Shown here: positions 1 to 6,488 of the stretch, piece after piece
Position numbering within the stretch: the first letter of the stretch is position 1
Layout of the letters: each line of letters starts with the position of its first letter
IMG/VR virus record: IMGVR_UViG_2740892372_000012
Strand: one strand, 5' to 3'
Length of the DNA stretch: 6,494 nucleotides
Origin: a virus
Lineage: Duplodnaviria > Heunggongvirae > Uroviricota > Caudoviricetes
The notes under the pieces: model-generated
Told to the model about the DNA's origin: nothing
Databases searched by the model: none
What the model saw: only the letters and a program-made list of their open reading frames with translations
Made by a program: the position numbers and the translations under genes

Positions 1-822
1 CTGTGTCTTTACCCAGCGTGTGTATTTCTCATTTACCCAGCGGCGACGTTTAGGTCGTTTCATGAAGGATTCCGGAGACTCCGGATCAACGGCAATGCTG
101 ACCACCGTCTTTTCCTGTGGTGGGTTCTGTTGCTGGTGGGTGTGAGGCGGTAGCGCAATATTTTTTGTGCGCTGCTTCAGTATGCTGGTGGCGGTCTGTT
201 CTCCCGGTATGATGTCGCTTTCACGGTATACGGAGCGGATTTTTTCCGCCGGTAATCCCAGAGAGCGACGCGATACTGCCTCAGGTAATGCGTCCACCAC
301 CTGATTGCAGACTGCCCACCAGGATAATTCAGCCAGCGATAATTCCCGTTCCTGTGTGCCATTCATTGCGTGGCGGATGACGTCAATCATCCATGCTGAC
401 AGGTTTTGTTGAGCAAGTTGCTCAAGTGATTCGGATGTCTGGTCGCGCAGCTGGTTGTCGCAGTGCCAGCACAACACCATCGCGCCGGTACCGTAACGAT
501 GTATGACGGTTTCGCTGTGGTGGTAATCACCATGAGGCCACTGGCAGGATTTAACGTGACGTAATAACCAGTCAGACAGTGCACCAGCGCCACCAGCAGC
601 ACGAATCACACGCTCATTGCTGAAAAATGGCAGTAATGATTTATCTTCCGCCAGCGGCTGGCGAACGGCAGGAACGACCCCGGACGGCAGATTACGCATG
701 CTTTTCGGTTCAGACTCCACCAGCACCCTGCCGCCATGAAATACCCGCATGGATTCACGGCCTGGCTTAACGATAACCAGACCGAGTTCCGGTACCAGAA
801 CAGGTCGAAGTAATACCCGCAC
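1..822 (-). CDS. Hypothetical phage protein, N-terminal part only (gene continues past the window start); sits where NinG/DUF968-type genes lie in lambdoid nin regions
   Basis: Hand translation: the minus-strand frame with codons at plus 1-3, 4-6, ... has no stop from 897 down to 1 (299 codons), while the same-phase plus frame is full of stops. Candidate start GTG (plus 820-822) preceded by GGAGG (complement of plus 827-831) with a 4-nt spacer; alternative ATG at 748-750 has no SD. Missing from the ORF track because it has no stop inside the window. Translation begins VRVLLRPVLVPELGLVIVKPGRESMRVFHGG and includes a CWHCD motif. Family assignment is unverified. Confidence 0.55.
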   Translation of the reverse strand, partial: MRVLLRPVLVPELGLVIVKPGRESMRVFHGGRVLVESEPKSMRNLPSGVVPAVRQPLAEDKSLLPFFSNERVIRAAGGAGALSDWLLRHVKSCQWPHGDYHHSETVIHRYGTGAMVLCWHCDNQLRDQTSESLEQLAQQNLSAWMIDVIRHAMNGTQERELSLAELSWWAVCNQVVDALPEAVSRRSLGLPAEKIRSVYRESDIIPGEQTATSILKQRTKNIALPPHTHQQQNPPQEKTVVSIAVDPESPESFMKRPKRRRWVNEKYTRWVKTQ

Positions 823-823
823 A

Positions 824-1102
824 TTACCTCCAGATCCGTTGCTGGAATGTGCGGGACGGACGCGGTGGCCGTTCGGAGTAAGGGAGCCTGACGGAGATTA
901 TCCAGTGACGGTAGTCGAGGCTAAGGGCTTTTTTAACCTCGCATCCGCGCCTGCGGTAACACTGAATGAGCCATTCGGCCTGTTCTTCAGTGCATGGGGG
1001 ATGCTGGTACCAGTCAGATTTGAATGCGTGAAAACACCGTCCGCGCCTGCTGGCAAAGACGGCAGAATCATCAGAATTGTATAATTTGGTATCGTGCGCC
1101 AT
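824..1102 (-). CDS. Small Cys-containing hypothetical protein (92 aa), possibly the N-terminal piece of a NinG/DUF968-like gene or a separate small gene
   Basis: ATG at 1100-1102 (MAHDTKLYNSDDSAVFASRRGRCFHAFKSDWYQHPPCTEEQAEWL...), stop TAA at 824-826, one base before the GTG start of the downstream long ORF, with the GGAGG for that ORF inside its 3' end (coupling geometry). Own SD is weak. The longer TTG-initiated version in the ORF track (start 1183) would overlap the hok terminator and is disfavoured. Confidence 0.35.
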   Translation of the reverse strand: MAHDTKLYNSDDSAVFASRRGRCFHAFKSDWYQHPPCTEEQAEWLIQCYRRRGCEVKKALSLDYRHWIISVRLPYSERPPRPSRTFQQRIWR

Positions 1103-1171: not shown

Positions 1172-1201
1172 AGGAAAAAACAAAACCCGCCGAAGCGGGT
1201 T
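1172..1201 (-). terminator. Rho-independent terminator downstream of hok
   Basis: Minus-strand reading: stem AACCCGC (1190-1184), loop ttcg, stem GCGGGTT, followed directly by TTGTTTTTT (complement of plus 1175-1183). GC-rich 7-bp stem plus U-tract, about 70 nt after the hok stop. Confidence 0.6.
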
Positions 1202-1269: not shown

Positions 1270-1425
1270 TTACTCCTCAGGTTCGTAAGCTGTGAAGACA
1301 GCGACCTCCGTCTGGCCGGTTCGGATTCGTACCTCGCAGAGGTCTTTCCTCGTTACCAGTGCCGTCACTATGACGGTTAAACAGATGACGATCAGGGCGA
1401 TTAACATCGCCTTTTGCTGCTTCAT
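1270..1425 (-). CDS. hokD: Hok/Gef family type I toxin (51 aa, small membrane toxin)
   Basis: Translation MKQQKAMLIALIVICLTVIVTALVTRKDLCEVRIRTGQTEVAVFTAYEPEE matches the Hok/Gef family signature (hydrophobic helix, conserved Cys, C-terminal YE motif) and, from memory, the E. coli HokD/RelF sequence. AAGGAG SD 9 nt upstream of ATG 1423-1425. The ORF track lists a 70-aa in-frame extension from ATG 1480-1482, which has its own GAGG SD 8 nt upstream. Confidence 0.88.
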   Translation of the reverse strand: MKQQKAMLIALIVICLTVIVTALVTRKDLCEVRIRTGQTEVAVFTAYEPEE

Positions 1426-1546
1426 AGCCTGCTTCTCCTTGCCTTTCGGCACGTAAGAGGCTAACCTAGATTTGCCGTTCATAGATTGAGCCTCAGATTA
1501 ATGTTAAGCGTCTTGCAGGACGCGTAATGTTAACTGGGGCTTTTCT

Positions 1547-1582
1547 CTATCTGCCGTTGGTGTTCATGCCCGAGGCAGATAG
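1547..1582 (-). other. Inverted repeat (9-bp stem, 18-nt loop) in the region upstream of hok; possible leader RNA structure
   Basis: Plus 1547-1555 ctatctgcc is the exact reverse complement of 1574-1582 ggcagatag. Hok-family mRNAs are known to carry structured regulatory elements, but the role here is inference. Confidence 0.3.
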
Positions 1583-2029
1583 CCTCAAGCACCCGCAGCT
1601 ATTCTACTTAACTTCCCATTACCTCGCCAATATGAAATCGGTCAGAAAGACAGACGTCCCATAAGGACAACAACGGAAAAAGAGATTTTGCTTGATGCTA
1701 TTTACCTCTGCACCATGAAGTTGCGCCAAAATCCCAGTGGTGATAACAGGAATTTGGTTGTTGGTGATTGGGGAAAGAAGTACGTTAGACTGTGGGTTAG
1801 TTCATTGACATGATAGTTACCTGCCTTCAATTTCCTAAGCAAGCGATGTAAACGATAATCAATATCAAATGTATTGACAGGTAAAATAATAACGATGTAC
1901 CTTTGCTGATAACATATATCAGTCTTAAATCATAATGGAGGTAGATAAAATAACTAAACACACACAACAAATTTTTTATCAGTGACATAGCATATCTTAA
2001 GCATCCTTTAATGCTCATGGGGAGAACGC

Positions 2030-2803
2030 ATGACTAAACATATGGACATTCATTGTCAAACACGCATATTTAACTCAATTAACCATGACACCAAATATAA
2101 AATATGTATTTTTACTCCAAAAAACATTAAAAAAAATAATGCAACTCTTTATATACTTGATGGGAATAGTGCCAACAATTACATTTCTGATATTCTGCCT
2201 GTTATTGATGCACTACCCAATCCACCAGTGTTAGTTACACTTGGTTATGAATCTTGGAATAACCTTAGCATTCATCGCCGTGCTTACGATTATACTCCTG
2301 ATGGTGAAAATGCTATTGTTGATAACTCTAAACCAGCATGGATCTACTTTACTGGTGGAGGAAGCCAGTCTTTCCGAGAATTATTACTAACTCAGATCAT
2401 GCCATGGGTTAGTACTATTGCTCCGAACAGTTCCAGAATCGGTATATGGGGGCACTCGCTAGGTGCTATTTTTGTGCTTGATTGCTTAAAAAATAATTCA
2501 TGCTTTAACTATTATTATATATCTGCACCATCACTTCTATGGCAGAATGAAAGAATCATCAAGATAATTAAAGATGATATATCAGAATCAAAGCACACTA
2601 AAAGTATATGCTTGCTTAACGGAAATCTTAGCCTTGATTACTCCGCATCTTTATATCCTGAAGCCATCAAAGCGGAATCTGTTTTGAGAAATATTTTGAC
2701 AGAAAAATACAGTAATTTTTCTATTGTACAATTTCCAGAGCTCAATCATCAGGAGACTTTCTCTGCTGCACTCTGGAATAGCATTATTCATTTCAGCATA
2801 TAA
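2030..2803 (+). CDS. Alpha/beta-hydrolase fold esterase (esterase D / enterochelin-esterase-like family), no signal peptide; AT-rich cargo (moron) gene
   Basis: 257-aa ORF with GGGGAG SD 5 nt upstream of ATG 2030. Nucleophile elbow GHSLG (WGHSLGAIF), upstream LYILDGNS motif resembling the YLLDG motif of the putative-esterase family, and a His near the C-terminus (ELNHQETF) consistent with a Ser-Asp-His triad. Codon usage is strongly AT-biased compared with the flanking phage genes. Confidence 0.8.
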   Translation: MTKHMDIHCQTRIFNSINHDTKYKICIFTPKNIKKNNATLYILDGNSANNYISDILPVIDALPNPPVLVTLGYESWNNLSIHRRAYDYTPDGENAIVDNSKPAWIYFTGGGSQSFRELLLTQIMPWVSTIAPNSSRIGIWGHSLGAIFVLDCLKNNSCFNYYYISAPSLLWQNERIIKIIKDDISESKHTKSICLLNGNLSLDYSASLYPEAIKAESVLRNILTEKYSNFSIVQFPELNHQETFSAALWNSIIHFSI

Positions 2804-3154
2804 CAGAAAATATGTAATCACTTTATCAATCTAGCTAACATAACTGATATCAATCCTAATGGGTCTTTGAACATATTAAAAGATAACTTCTCATTTGTAC
2901 ATTGTTGTGTTCTTAGACCCATTTCAAAAATACTATTTTTTAGATACTAATAATTACATCCATTTAGCTATCTTCTAAATACTCCTCTCAGTTTCTTCAT
3001 TGGAGCTGATTCAACTCCGGCAATGCATACTAGGATCATTTTATAAGCATACAAACAACATCCAGACTGTGAATTATTGCTATTCATTTTCTATGTATCT
3101 GCTCTTTTCCCATCCACTGAAACACCAGAATCCAAAGGTTTCATGTTATTTTCA

Positions 3155-3568
3155 CTATTCCATCATTACTCCTGTGTAAAATATCAAAACTCGCTGCATC
3201 ACTTCACTGTTACGGCACTCACTACAAATTATGTTCAATTGCCTGTCATAGCGGCGTATTTCTCCGTCTGGTAATGACCAGATAAGGTCAGGATCAACCA
3301 CAACCGGTTTCTTCAGTTTTGCCCTCGATAGTTTTTTGCGGGCGTTTTGCCAGTCCTTACGAGCCTGTTCAGATGGGAATAACCCGTAACCAGAGTTGTA
3401 TACATCGCCACTGGCAACCAGCTCTCTGGCAAGAACGCTCATCAGATATCTTGTCGCACCTGTCTTGGCTTCCAGTTGCCGTAACGTCTCGCGCCCACTC
3501 CGGCGTACTAGCTCAACAACCTGCCCTTTAATTTTTTCCCGCTCTTCCTGTGTAAATACTTTTGCCAT
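3155..3568 (-). CDS. Hypothetical phage protein (137 aa), last gene of the replication-module operon
   Basis: ATG at 3566-3568 preceded by GGAGG (complement of 3574-3578) with a 5-nt spacer; stop TAG at 3155-3157. Start lies 15 nt after the upstream gene's stop. The ORF-track start (TTG 3583) is a less likely 5-codon extension. No recognisable catalytic motif. Confidence 0.7.
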   Translation of the reverse strand: MAKVFTQEEREKIKGQVVELVRRSGRETLRQLEAKTGATRYLMSVLARELVASGDVYNSGYGLFPSEQARKDWQNARKKLSRAKLKKPVVVDPDLIWSLPDGEIRRYDRQLNIICSECRNSEVMQRVLIFYTGVMME

Positions 3569-3583: not shown

Positions 3584-4354
3584 TCACTTTTCCGATACAA
3601 CACGGCGGGAAGAATCAGTAATCTGTCGAACAATATCCCGGTGCTTGTTCAGCTCCCGCAGCGCGGCGCAGACTCGCTCCCACTTCTGAACATCACTTTT
3701 CGCCCTGCGCAGCGCCAGGTTTGCCCTGCGAAGGGACGGAAAAATCAGCTCATCTGCTTGCGTTTCGGTAAACGATGGCAACGGCTGCACAATGTCCGCC
3801 ACAGTTTCTGTTTTAATTTCTTCCTGTGTTGCGGCTTCCCGGACTGGTAACGCAGCACCTGCTGGCTGAGGAAAGGCCTTACCATCACTTTCCGTTACCA
3901 GCGCGGCTTTCGGCTCTGCTGGTAAATTATCGCCCGGCATGCAGTAACGAAATTTACCGTTCTGATTAACGCGTGCCAGCCGCCCCGTTGCGGTTACCAC
4001 CGCCAGCGTGGAAGCAACCTTGCGAGTACTGACACCGAACTTACCCGCCAGTTCCTCACACGTTTTAGCCCCATCCTGACCGATAAACTCAATCATCATG
4101 TCTGCGGTAACTTTTTGTTCGACCTCCCCGGTCAGCATATCCTGTGCTTCAGATTTTACTGGCCGCTCTTCGGTTACCCGGGATTCACCTTCGCCAGCCA
4201 GAAACCAGGTGTGACCAGTTTTATCAACGACGCCATTTCTTTTGAGTTCCCACAGCTCGTTGACAGCCTCTTCACGACTGATTCCAAGGCGAGCTGCCAC
4301 CACATGTGAAGAGGCTTTTTTCAGTGCTTTCAGTGCGTCAGATACGGTTTCCAT
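3584..4354 (-). CDS. Hypothetical phage protein (256 aa) with two N-terminal regions resembling winged-helix/HTH segments
   Basis: ATG 4352-4354 with GGAGG (complement of 4363-4367) 8 nt upstream; stop TGA 3584-3586. Starts 21 nt downstream of the DnaC-like stop. Two similar segments (SDALKALKKASSHVVAARLGISREEAVNELWELKRNGVVDKTG and GAKTCEELAGKFGVSTRKVASTLAVVTATGRLARVNQNGK) suggest tandem wHTH-like domains; function unknown. Confidence 0.75.
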   Translation of the reverse strand: METVSDALKALKKASSHVVAARLGISREEAVNELWELKRNGVVDKTGHTWFLAGEGESRVTEERPVKSEAQDMLTGEVEQKVTADMMIEFIGQDGAKTCEELAGKFGVSTRKVASTLAVVTATGRLARVNQNGKFRYCMPGDNLPAEPKAALVTESDGKAFPQPAGAALPVREAATQEEIKTETVADIVQPLPSFTETQADELIFPSLRRANLALRRAKSDVQKWERVCAALRELNKHRDIVRQITDSSRRVVSEK

Positions 4355-4375
4355 TAAAATTTCCTCCGGACAAAA

Positions 4376-5122
4376 TTACTTCACAACCCTCATATTGCTG
4401 ACATTTGGACGCCAGCTATCCCAGTTAAACGTCACCCATCGACCACCGTTCATGGTCATGCGGTCCATAATCCTCTCACCAAGAAGCGTACTCATTGCGG
4501 CATGATTCAGGTTTGTTAACATCCCGACACTGCACAGTGATGCTGTCCGGCGATCAATTATCTGGTGTAATACCACCTGCTCGTTTTTCGTCTCCCGCTG
4601 AACGCCTATTTCATCCAGGACCAGCAAATCAACACTGCAAAGCTCCTGTAAAAATTTTTCCCCGGATTTGCCGTTGTCGTAGCTGTCATGCAACACGCTC
4701 ATGACATCAGACACGGTGACGATAATCACGCTGCGCCCCTTCGCCATCAGCCGGTTACCCATCGCCGCTGCAAGGTGATTTTTCCCGGTGCCGGTTTTAC
4801 CGCTGAACACAAAATTCGTGCACCCGGTCATCAGTTCGTCAGCTATGGATTTGGCCTGGCTCAGCGCGTATTTTTGCCCGTCGTTCTGCACCTGATAATT
4901 CGCAAACGAGCATTTGCTGTGCAGAGGCTGGATGCCCGAACGATTCAGGATTTTTTCCACCCGCAACTGGTGATTCTGGCGGTTAATCTCCTCGCTGCGT
5001 TTTCGTCCTTCAGCAAGTTGCCATTCCCGCCACTCCTCCACCGTCCGGTACGGTGGAACCGACGCCGGTGGTGCAAGTCTGCGAATACGTTCAAGAACCC
5101 CGGCTGCCGCAATGTTTTTCAT
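4376..5122 (-). CDS. DnaC-like replicative helicase loader (AAA+ ATPase), prophage paralog of DnaC
   Basis: 248-aa ORF with Walker A FVFSGKTGTGKNHLAAAM and Walker B DLLVLDEIG, colinear over its full length with recalled E. coli DnaC (RSGIxPLH, CSFxNY, GMLTN, LLGERxMDRM, FNWDSWR). ATG 5120-5122 lies 6 nt after the initiator stop, with GGGGGTGA upstream (translational coupling). Confidence 0.9.
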   Translation of the reverse strand: MKNIAAAGVLERIRRLAPPASVPPYRTVEEWREWQLAEGRKRSEEINRQNHQLRVEKILNRSGIQPLHSKCSFANYQVQNDGQKYALSQAKSIADELMTGCTNFVFSGKTGTGKNHLAAAMGNRLMAKGRSVIIVTVSDVMSVLHDSYDNGKSGEKFLQELCSVDLLVLDEIGVQRETKNEQVVLHQIIDRRTASLCSVGMLTNLNHAAMSTLLGERIMDRMTMNGGRWVTFNWDSWRPNVSNMRVVK

Positions 5123-5128
5123 GCCACA

Positions 5129-6223
5129 TCACCCCCTGAATCCCGGCGGAATTTCGGTATCCGGTTCAGAAATATGATTCACACAACGCTGGTTGTTCGT
5201 GCCGCTTACCGGGAGCAACCAGGGGTTTTCAAAATTCCGGTCCGGCCCAAAAAACGTCGTCGCTCGCTGAACAAATTCCGTTCCCGCTTTCCCGGTCGCC
5301 GCCAGGTATCTCGCGTAACGCCTCACACCATCCAGCATGGTCTCTGGTGGCACCCCCTCGCGCAATCTGGCCTTCCAGGCACTGAATGCGGATTTCTTCG
5401 GGTTTGCTCCGGCACGCAACGGGTACTCCCGCCAGACCTGTTCGAACACATCCGGATAATCCACTCGTCCCACAGACAGCCCGGTGTTTTCCGGGACTAC
5501 CCGATCGGCTTCCCGCTGAATGGCGGAATCGGCTTCAGGCTGCTGCAGTTGGTGTGATTGCTTCGGCCTTGCGGTCATCACCTGCTGCACAGCGCCCGAA
5601 TCGGCTTTCAGCGCATACGCTGAATCGGCTTCCGGTGTCGTGCCTGCTGGCTGACCAGGATTGACGGTCTGAACATCCCCTGCCTGGTTCGTGGCGTTTT
5701 TTACGCCATGGACCATAGTGTTTTGATCTTCTTGATCTGTATCTTTATCTGTATCTTTATCTGTATCTTTATCTGTATCTTTATCTGTCGTGACTCGTCG
5801 TGACATGTGCATGACATTTCGTGACGCGCCGTGACAATCGCCATTTTGTTCCCGCTTTCTTTCCCTCTCTCGCTGCGCCCTCTTGCGCTCTGCAGGAGAT
5901 TTTGCGGTTTGCGAAATATTGCCGTTGTCCTCTTTAAGCACCTGGCGTTTTTCCCATCCAGTGATTAAATCACCATCAAGTACCCGCCCCTGCATCGTCT
6001 GCAAAATTGAATCAATTACCTCTTCTGTCACGTCGAGCGCACTTGCCAAATCTTCTGTCGTGACATCAATGTGACCTCGCGTGACATTTCGTGACGCGCT
6101 CACCAGGAGGTGGATATACACTGCCATCACTGTTGCAATTGGCTGCCCTGACACCCTGGCAATTGTTCGCCACTTAGGGTCATTTGGCATGTCATGCCAT
6201 AATCTGAGCCAGGCGTTAGCCAT
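5129..6223 (-). CDS. Phage replication initiation protein: N-terminal DNA-binding (replisome-organizer-like) domain, (DKDT)n linker, C-terminal DnaT-like (primosomal protein I-like) domain
   Basis: C-terminus ...NHISEPDTEIPPGFRG matches the recalled C-terminus of E. coli DnaT (...SEPDSQIPPGFRG). Gene order DnaT-like then DnaC-like mirrors the host dnaTC operon. Start taken as ATG 6221-6223 (GAGG SD, 5-nt spacer) rather than the GTG at 6229 used in the ORF track. Stop TGA 5129-5131. Confidence 0.85.
   Translation of the reverse strand: MANAWLRLWHDMPNDPKWRTIARVSGQPIATVMAVYIHLLVSASRNVTRGHIDVTTEDLASALDVTEEVIDSILQTMQGRVLDGDLITGWEKRQVLKEDNGNISQTAKSPAERKRAQRERERKREQNGDCHGASRNVMHMSRRVTTDKDTDKDTDKDTDKDTDQEDQNTMVHGVKNATNQAGDVQTVNPGQPAGTTPEADSAYALKADSGAVQQVMTARPKQSHQLQQPEADSAIQREADRVVPENTGLSVGRVDYPDVFEQVWREYPLRAGANPKKSAFSAWKARLREGVPPETMLDGVRRYARYLAATGKAGTEFVQRATTFFGPDRNFENPWLLPVSGTNNQRCVNHISEPDTEIPPGFRG
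5735..5788. repeat. Perfect tandem repeat, 12-nt unit atctttatctgt x4 plus a partial copy, in frame inside the initiator gene (encodes DKDT repeats)
   Basis: Plus 5741-5788 is four exact copies of atctttatctgt, preceded by a partial unit at 5735-5740. The region is AT-rich, with two GATC sites just upstream (5724-5727, 5734-5737). Confidence 0.9.
5788..5835. repeat. Cluster of five phased (G/A)TGAC direct repeats at about 10-bp spacing (putative iterons, cluster 1)
   Basis: tcGTGAC at 5788-5794, 5798-5804, 5819-5825; gcATGAC at 5809-5815; ccGTGAC at 5829-5835. Spacing 10/11/10/10 bp, about one helical turn. The motif falls in different codon phases of the overlapping initiator ORF, so it is conserved at the DNA level, not the peptide level. 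Confidence 0.6.
6058..6095. repeat. Second cluster of four phased GTGAC direct repeats (putative iterons, cluster 2)
   Basis: GTGAC at 6060-6064, 6071-6075, 6081-6085, 6091-6095. The 18-mer tgacatttcgtgacgcgc is identical at 5812-5829 and 6082-6099, and both clusters are preceded by the same ctgtcgtgac 10-mer (5785-5794, 6055-6064). Confidence 0.6.
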
Positions 6224-6488
6224 ACTCACCTCTTCTGATACCGAATCTTTTTACTCACGAGTTGCCGGAAGCGATTCGATATGGCTATTATCACTCAATG
6301 CACTGCCACAGCATTTCCTGCCGGGCCACCACGGTTCATCTGATTGAAACCGGCGATTGCCACTGCGACAAAATCATCAGCGTCTCTCACCAGTCGCTCC
6401 CGCGTCTCCACCAGCTCCCGAAAATAAGCTGAACTGAACCGCCCCGGGAATCCTGGAGACTAAACTTCCTGAGAAAGAGGTAAACAGG
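6224..6488. promoter_or_regulatory. Divergent intergenic control region between the leftward replication operon and a rightward gene starting at 6489
   Basis: No convincing ORF on either strand over about 265 bp. Plus-strand AAGAGG (6475-6480) followed 8 nt later by ATG 6489, with the gene running off the window. Candidate minus-strand -10 GATAAT (complement of 6287-6292) upstream of the initiator. Promoter elements are not confidently resolved. Confidence 0.35.

Follow-up and report, generated by a model that had tools for sequence, protein, structure and literature searches.

A phrog_1212 gene upstream of a ydfU-family DUF968 gene in the Q-proximal region of a lambdoid prophage of Escherichia coli

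NinG (Rap) of phage lambda is a His-Me finger nuclease specific for junctions and D-loops (PMC5714182). Its gene occupies the slot of ydfU, ahead of Q in the nin region, an analogy of position only. YdfU belongs to the DUF968 family, which has been grouped with DUF1364/YbcO in His-Me finger group 7 and has been proposed to comprise recombination nucleases with a role like that of NinG and the RecA-dependent nucleases (PMC5714182). In addition, Orf-like proteins of the DUF968 family from Listeria and Staphylococcus phages carry a zinc-finger HNH motif in a C-terminal extension (PMC4118853). YbcO (DUF1364; PDB 3g27), which is encoded by DLP12 and phage 82, is approximately 96 amino acids (aa) long and consists of the HNH module alone, whereas YdfU has approximately 260 extra N-terminal residues with a Cys/His domain and helical regions, partly inside the Pfam DUF968 match (residues 160 to 346). 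Ref of phage P1, a RecA-dependent HNH nuclease (PDB 3plw), is likewise without the N-terminal domains of YdfU. No biochemical report on YdfU or YbcO was found in the literature.

The DNA analyzed here, referred to as the window, is a stretch of 6,494 nucleotides (nt) from a virus of the Caudoviricetes (IMG/VR record IMGVR_UViG_2740892372_000012), of which positions 1 to 1102 are considered. The YdfU protein of the Qin prophage of E. coli K-12 (b1560) has 349 aa, as does the protein of the window, and the two are 86% identical in an ungapped alignment. In K-12, ydfU also lies upstream of Q and starts at the same GTG, a single base past the stop of the same 92-aa upstream open reading frame (ORF). 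The two loci differ in their neighbors. In K-12, rem and relBE are inserted near hokD, with rem lying between hokD and an intact, unannotated homologue of the 92-aa ORF, whereas the window lacks both rem and relBE and has rusA between its ydfU-like gene and Q. The Q protein of the window belongs to PF06530, and a 607-aa YdfU-Q fusion (87% identical to the query) has PF03589 on its Q part; Pfam PF27659 is also listed for fusions of this length. The minus strand of positions 1 to 1102 is best explained overall, with a probability of about 90%, as two separate genes in the Q-proximal (nin-like) early region of a lambdoid prophage.

Locus, reading frames, and junction

Bases 1 to 1500 of the window match the chromosome of E. 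coli O145:H28 strain RM12581 (accession number NZ_CP007136.1) with 100% identity, in which the matched region is a lambdoid prophage, and at least 80% of this 1.5-kb stretch is carried by 4207 of 5426 complete E. coli genomes. The gene order in the identical genome is hokD, the small gene, the ydfU-like (DUF968) gene, rusA, and Q, and RefSeq annotates two coding sequences there with boundaries exactly at the window coordinates given below for the small gene and the DUF968 gene. The hokD gene is placed at 1270 to 1425 by the RefSeq annotation, and a sok antisense RNA (RF01794) was located at 1420 to 1594 with Rfam. An intrinsic-terminator-like hairpin with a T-run (1184 to 1201, minus strand), 69 nt downstream of the hokD stop codon, is the upstream boundary of the pair formed by the small gene and the DUF968 gene. 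Transcription of the pair must either read through this hairpin or start after it, and a promoter scan found no sigma-70-like promoter between the hairpin and the small gene.

The minus-strand frame with codons ending at coordinates divisible by 3 contains a single stop, the TAA at 900 to 898, and is stop-free from 897 to base 1, i.e., for 299 codons. The probability of finding no stop in 299 codons is approximately 5e-6, as calculated from the base composition. This frame is missing from the program-made ORF list because it runs off the end of the window. It contains the first 274 of the 349 codons of a YdfU-family DUF968 gene (positions 1 to 822, minus strand; GTG start at 822 to 820; RefSeq WP_001265141.1). 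In NZ_CP007136.1, the coding sequence occupies 5773 to 6822 of the extracted locus (L001), which corresponds to window positions -227 to 822, so that 75 codons lie beyond the left window edge, past which the gene extends for 228 nt. The initial annotation had supposed that an ORF caller had skipped a real gene cut by the edge; the frame scan and the RefSeq coding sequence agree with this, and leftward extension gave an intact 349-aa ORF with no stop directly left of the window. All of the sequence observations made in the initial annotation were confirmed.

The small gene occupies 824 to 1102 on the minus strand (RefSeq WP_001341388.1, hypothetical protein, phrog_1212) and ends with the TAA at 826 to 824. 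The ORF list gives it as 824 to 1183 with a TTG start; the start in RefSeq and in all homologues is the ATG at 1102, which gives 92 aa. Direct reading of the sequence confirmed that it ends one base before a GTG preceded by GGAGG. The junction (820 to 831, minus strand) has the form GGAGG-TAA-T-GTG within ...ATC TGG AGG TAA T GTG CGG..., with GGAGG at 831 to 827. The small gene thus provides, in its two final sense codons (TGG AGG), the Shine-Dalgarno sequence for the DUF968 gene; the stop of the small gene falls inside the spacer, one base ahead of the GTG. The layout TGG-(A/G)GG-stop-start was found at most of the 17 junctions listed, where it precedes DUF968, NinG, YbcO, RusA, and NinX genes; the junctions of PY54, PhiR46_1, EhrS_59, and the locus L077 depart from it. 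The terminal Trp of the small protein is near-invariant because the terminal codons form this recurring layout.

With a stop and a start within a few bases of each other, a Shine-Dalgarno sequence inside the upstream ORF, and a layout conserved in relatives, the junction is that of a tightly coupled pair, as had been proposed. We infer from this arrangement that the two genes are coupled by termination-reinitiation. Ribosomes ending the small gene would reinitiate at the GTG with a short, 4-nt spacer, and synthesis of the nuclease would then depend on the small gene being translated. Phage early genes commonly have stops and starts packed this closely, and coupling alone is therefore no proof of a functional partnership.

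The DUF968 protein

Only residues 1 to 274 of the DUF968 protein are encoded inside the window; most of its C-terminal HNH domain, with the catalytic motif (C276...H318), therefore lies outside it; the full-length protein and the motif were read from the 100%-identical record, not from the window itself. The full protein matches Pfam DUF968 (PF06147) over residues 160 to 346 with 259.2 bits, compared with a cut-off of 27.8 (E value, 2.4e-77), and the part inside the window alone (residues 160 to 274; positions 1 to 345, minus strand) scores 112 bits. This score and the 86% identity to K-12 YdfU justify the earlier description of the long frame as YdfU/DUF968-like. The protein also matches phrog_96 ("HNH endonuclease") end to end (E value, 1.5e-176) and Pfam HNHc_6 weakly; NCBIfam contains no model for it or for the small protein. 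The exact protein was found on 999 contigs, and the YdfU database clusters, of 349 to 352 aa, have thousands of members.

In 84 relatives with identities down to 50%, residues C276, C279, D284, D285, H287, H288, D303, C310, H314, and H318 are invariant, and these C-terminal residues are a zinc-finger HNH signature (CxxC...HH...CxxH...H). The predicted model has the beta-beta-alpha-metal fold, and its C-terminal HNH domain most resembles P1 Ref and YbcO; the prediction was run with a 95%-identical protein (P0182) as the first row in place of the protein of the window record. A PDB sequence search with full-length YdfU gave no match at an E value of ≤1, and the PDB sequence-profile matches of the HNH domain are individually nonsignificant (E values, 0.14 to 1.1), the fold assignment resting on the predicted model. 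The likeness to P1 Ref also comes from the model, the match of YdfU to Pfam RecA_dep_nuc being nonsignificant (E value, 0.25). We infer that the DUF968 protein is a zinc-finger HNH (His-Me finger) nuclease, predicted to act on recombination or replication intermediates. This nuclease would work beside RusA in the lytic cycle, as a functional analogue of lambda NinG/Rap that would be structurally closest to P1 Ref. NinG has no detectable sequence similarity to YdfU and is its positional and probably its functional analogue, not a member of its family; in Gifsy-2 and GF-2, NinG follows a phrog_1212 small gene, as YdfU does in the window.

The N-terminal domain of YdfU contains a second conserved Cys/His motif, encoded by codons 93 to 126 (positions 445 to 546, minus strand) in the region of phrog_11007. 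The motif, C93-x3-H97-x2-Y100-H101...C118-x2-C121-D122-N123, is invariant or nearly so in the 84 sequences down to 50% identity, and AF2 places a hairpin at 105 to 118 and then a helix at 119 to 125 there, with pLDDT values above 90. The motif is possibly a zinc site or a second beta-beta-alpha module. An hhalign comparison of the N-terminal and C-terminal domains of YdfU put the Cys/His motifs in register, with an E value of 0.18 and a probability of 0.3%, and scans of Pfam, PHROG, and PDB gave no significant HNH family in the N-terminal domain. A second HNH in this domain is hypothetical.

Neighbors of the small gene

Homologues of the small protein were found by tblastn in 64 phage records, including Gifsy-1, Gifsy-2, mEp237, N15, PY54, and phiES15. 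Outside Escherichia, they occur in phages of eight genera (Salmonella, Klebsiella, Yersinia, Edwardsiella, Erwinia, Hafnia, Cronobacter, and Citrobacter) with identities of 33 to 48%. An exhaustive search of 1.84 billion representatives yielded 61 clusters of the small protein, typically of 65 to 70 aa. The clusters listed are mostly of 90 to 92 aa (65 to 70 aa in other genera), and none contains DUF968. Among the phrog_1212 relatives, STM1021.1n of Gifsy-2, gp51 of mEp237, and Orf QD1 of N15 have the core and the terminal TGG-(A/G)GG-stop in common with the window copy; the listed copies of 90 to 92 aa differ from other phrog_1212 members in carrying a 26-aa extension, which is weakly constrained (dN/dS, 0.54).

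In 17 hand-checked annotated phage and prophage loci, the small gene is directly upstream of its neighbor in 16, the exception being N15, where the copy is unannotated, and the neighbor or the next gene is a nuclease gene in at least 13. A search of IMG/VR loci with a single 66-aa family member as the query placed RusA (58 loci), NinG (6 loci), or YdfU (2 loci) next to the small gene in 66 of 68 loci. The order small gene, RusA, YdfU was found in 51 of the 68 and in Citrobacter phage Chris1. In other phages, the small gene lies upstream of NinG, YbcO, NinX, or an exonuclease gene. Redundancy in the IMG/VR sample is high: across the 58 loci, the RusA proteins encoded downstream are approximately 89 to 99% identical.

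These neighbors, together with the overlap of stop and Shine-Dalgarno sequence that is kept whichever gene follows, might mean that the nuclease module has the small protein as its dedicated partner, for example by inhibiting YdfU, RusA, YbcO, or NinG, by acting as a chaperone, or by serving as a specificity subunit. If this were true, the terminal Trp-Arg/Gly codons would be conserved for their role in ribosome binding at the nuclease gene, and the protein would regulate or target the nuclease. However, the partner families have unrelated folds (RusA versus His-Me finger), contrary to one specific interface, and nin regions are nuclease dense, so that adjacency is expected from synteny alone. 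In addition, most of the IMG/VR counts come from the redundant RusA loci, the next gene in EhrS_59, PY54, and MII_001 is no recognized nuclease gene, and no fusion with a nuclease was found apart from a single deletion product (P0213, described below). We consider a dedicated partner unlikely, and the data do not separate it from plain synteny. Our guess is that the small protein is an accessory or independent DNA metabolism factor that travels with the nuclease module. A broader proposal, that the phrog_1212 protein is a dedicated, coupled leader or partner which regulates or targets the nuclease and that YdfU is a two-headed His-Me finger enzyme with a second, cryptic module at residues 93 to 126, is equally doubtful when both parts are taken together.

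Coding frames of the two genes

The small protein matches the phrog_1212 profile over its entire length (profile positions 1 to 66 of 66; E value, 5.9e-36) with residues 27 to 92, and it consists of a conserved core of 66 aa and the N-terminal extension of 26 aa. The extension is common to the listed copies of 90 to 92 aa, nearly all of them from Escherichia. In an alignment of 32 members, Y49 is the sole invariant residue, and F32, L60, D63, L73, P74, and W91 are conserved in ≥90%, giving the core pattern W-F/Y...Y...L..D..W...LP...W. The AF2 core has pLDDT values above 90 and a beta-alpha-beta-beta arrangement with a C-terminal helix. Pfam searches with the small protein and with the 32 family members identified no family, only scattered chance matches.

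The window was compared with the Qin copy of K-12, to which it is 84% identical in DNA sequence without gaps over 1330 nt, and dN/dS ratios were calculated between the two copies by the Nei-Gojobori method. Mismatches at codon positions 1, 2, and 3 number 7, 10, and 26 in the small gene and 40, 17, and 108 in ydfU. The dN/dS ratio is 0.19 for the small gene (0.08 for the core and 0.54 for the N-terminal extension) and 0.10 for ydfU, compared with 1.1 to 3.3 in the other two frames of each region. The three listed minus-strand ORFs at 606 to 824, 387 to 602, and 177 to 362, which share one frame with TGA codons at 608, 389, 365, and 179, are therefore shadows, as the initial annotation had suspected.

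It is very unlikely that the small ORF is no gene but a leader or spacer, open by accident or merely in order to deliver ribosomes. The absence of a Pfam or NCBIfam family, the omission of the ORF from the curated K-12 MG1655 annotation, and the weak constraint on its first 26 codons would fit such a role. These are outweighed by the dN/dS ratio of the core, the protein-level homologues at 33 to 48% identity in phages of eight other genera, the confidently predicted AF2 core, and the membership in phrog_1212. The 92-aa gene does encode a protein, and its family is a small one of enterobacterial phages.

The initial annotation had also offered a single gene split by a frameshift in 827 to 897 (a pseudogene, a sequencing error, or a programmed shift); the ancestral product would have had approximately 440 aa. 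Upstream of the GTG, the DUF968 frame does continue for another 25 stop-free codons (823 to 897, minus strand), and one fused protein exists in the databases: among the best 120 clusters listed, the sole fusion of the small ORF with YdfU is a singleton of 438 aa (P0213), with the junction …FQQR|MRVLL…, consistent with a 13-nt deletion. However, the substitutions in 823 to 897 follow the frame of the small ORF. Mismatches by codon position are 1, 0, and 6 in that frame and 0, 6, and 1 in the DUF968 frame, with dN/dS ratios of 0.05 and 1.15, respectively; the stretch is noncoding in the DUF968 frame and forms the 3' end of the small gene. The alignment with K-12 is ungapped, and K-12 has the same junction at 84% DNA identity. 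Members of 92 aa or 349 aa number in the thousands against the lone fused singleton. The small gene is followed by NinG, YbcO, or RusA in other phages, and the N terminus of YdfU (MR.LL) is kept when RusA precedes it, in phages of the Chris1 type and in the 51 IMG/VR loci (MRALL…), with the start residue unchanged. Homologues thus occur as two separate conserved genes, a pattern that the initial annotation itself had set against a frameshift. Intact single-frame homologues are not the norm, the dN/dS ratios argue against read-through, and a frameshifted gene or pseudogene, which we consider highly improbable, was rejected. YdfU entries of 379 to 607 aa, also considered as fusions with the small ORF, are explained by duplications within the protein, by starts called too far upstream, or by read-through into rusA or Q; P0213 is the sole such fusion among them. 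Repetitive "hits" of 313 to 932 aa to the small protein (P0133, P0143, and P0168) were discarded as low-complexity repeat artifacts and are no fusions.

The chance that the small ORF is a homologue of Rem or bears the N-terminal zinc/Cys motif of NinG is close to negligible: it adjoins hokD, as rem does in Qin of K-12, and has four Cys in this copy, but BLASTP against K-12 Rem (b1561) gave no alignment at an E value of ≤100, K-12 has rem as a separate, extra gene besides its intact homologue of the small ORF, and neither similarity to Gifsy-2 NinG nor a Pfam NinG match was found. BLASTP of both window proteins against Gifsy-2 NinG, which itself matches Pfam NinG with an E value of 7e-82, returned chance segments only, and neither protein matches Pfam NinG (PF05766). 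The description "Cys-rich" holds for this copy and not as a conserved property, since the K-12 copy has other residues at three of the four Cys positions, the remaining one is variable among other genera, and only Y49 is invariant family-wide. Moreover, NinG is present in Gifsy-2 and GF-2 as a complete gene of its own, downstream of the homologue of the small ORF. Of the supposed pair of a rem-like and a ydfU-like gene, the two genes and the ydfU-like member (86% identical to K-12 YdfU) stand, and the rem-like member does not; the searches were positive for DUF968/YdfU and negative for NinG and Rem.

Both genes are ordinary, already annotated in RefSeq, and present in most E. coli genomes, with nothing new about them, and the value of the locus as a discovery is small. 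The outcome of the analysis is that a suspected frameshift or pseudogene is removed and that two suggested resemblances, to Rem and to NinG, are corrected. In K-12 MG1655, a conserved 92-aa gene between rem and ydfU is absent from the curated record. For YdfU, a y-gene of K-12, the predicted HNH model resembling Ref and YbcO and the conserved Cys/His N-terminal domain suggest concrete mutants for testing. For the phrog_1212 family, the terminal codons of the small gene also serve as the ribosome-binding site for the nuclease gene downstream, whichever it is.

Transcriptional context of the pair and neighboring features

A complete hokD/sok locus lies in the window, in which the sok RNA (1420-1594, minus strand) was identified by an Rfam match of 107 bits. 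An intrinsic-terminator-like hairpin (1184-1201, minus strand) follows the stop codon of hokD at a distance of 69 nt. A search for sigma-70-like promoters in the interval from this hairpin to the small phrog_1212 gene (824-1102, minus strand) found none. Because of this, transcription of the pair formed by the small gene and the ydfU-like gene, judged from sequence, probably relies on read-through or on antiterminated early transcription.

The region 1601-3200 is an AT-rich island with a GC content of 32-36%, versus approximately 53% in its flanks. It contains an alpha/beta-hydrolase gene (2030-2803, plus strand) oriented opposite to the early genes, and the island with this gene looks like an inserted moron. 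In addition, a 366-aa protein (5129-6229, minus strand) contains a (TDKD)n run that is encoded by a 12-nt tandem repeat (5730-5788; 4.9 copies with 97% matches); the gene for this protein is located upstream of the gene for a DnaC-like ATP-binding protein.

The YdfU N-terminal domain

The motif C-x3-H-x2-Y-H-H ... C-x2-C-D-N, which is invariant or nearly so in the YdfU N-terminal domain, occupies residues 93-126 (445-546, minus strand). AF2 predicted a beta-hairpin and a helix for these residues, with pLDDT above 90, and this segment may form a second His-Me-finger-like or zinc module; homology with HNH was unsupported by any sequence method (hhalign E value of 0.18). The precomputed Pfam list of the 607-aa YdfU-Q fusion proteins P0214, P0215, and P0218 includes PF27659.1, possibly a recent Pfam model for the N-domain of YdfU.

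Unannotated copies and the dual-coded end of the small gene

Escherichia coli K-12 MG1655 carries an intact 92-aa homologue of the small gene, sharing 80% identity with the window copy, between rem and ydfU (NC_000913.3, 1644306-1644584, minus strand; 4307-4585 of Qin locus L002). This homologue is not annotated in the MG1655 record, and an identical protein is found elsewhere in at least 1000 contigs under the name "Prophage protein." The copy in phage N15 (L013, 1801-2019) is likewise unannotated in the RefSeq record, and its UniProt entry is Orf QD1. Three repetitive proteins of 313-932 aa (P0133, P0143, and P0168) gave multistretch matches to the small protein (E values of 4e-11 to 5e-5) and were rejected as fusions, being tandem-repeat sequences with chance W/H/C-rich similarity.

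Among the 68 IMG/VR viral loci with a 66-aa relative (L016-L083), a highly redundant sample, 51 have the order small gene, rusA, ydfU, and rusA and ydfU are therefore swapped relative to the window. The small gene is followed by NinG in six loci and directly by YdfU in two.

At most of the 17 junctions listed (824-831, minus strand, with equivalents in L002-L016 and L073), the final two sense codons of phrog_1212 genes are TGG-(A/G)GG (Trp-Arg/Gly). By sequence, this end forms the Shine-Dalgarno of the downstream gene, which may be DUF968, NinG, YbcO, RusA, or NinX. The small gene's own stop falls inside the spacer between the Shine-Dalgarno and the next start, so that the end of the small gene is dual-coded.
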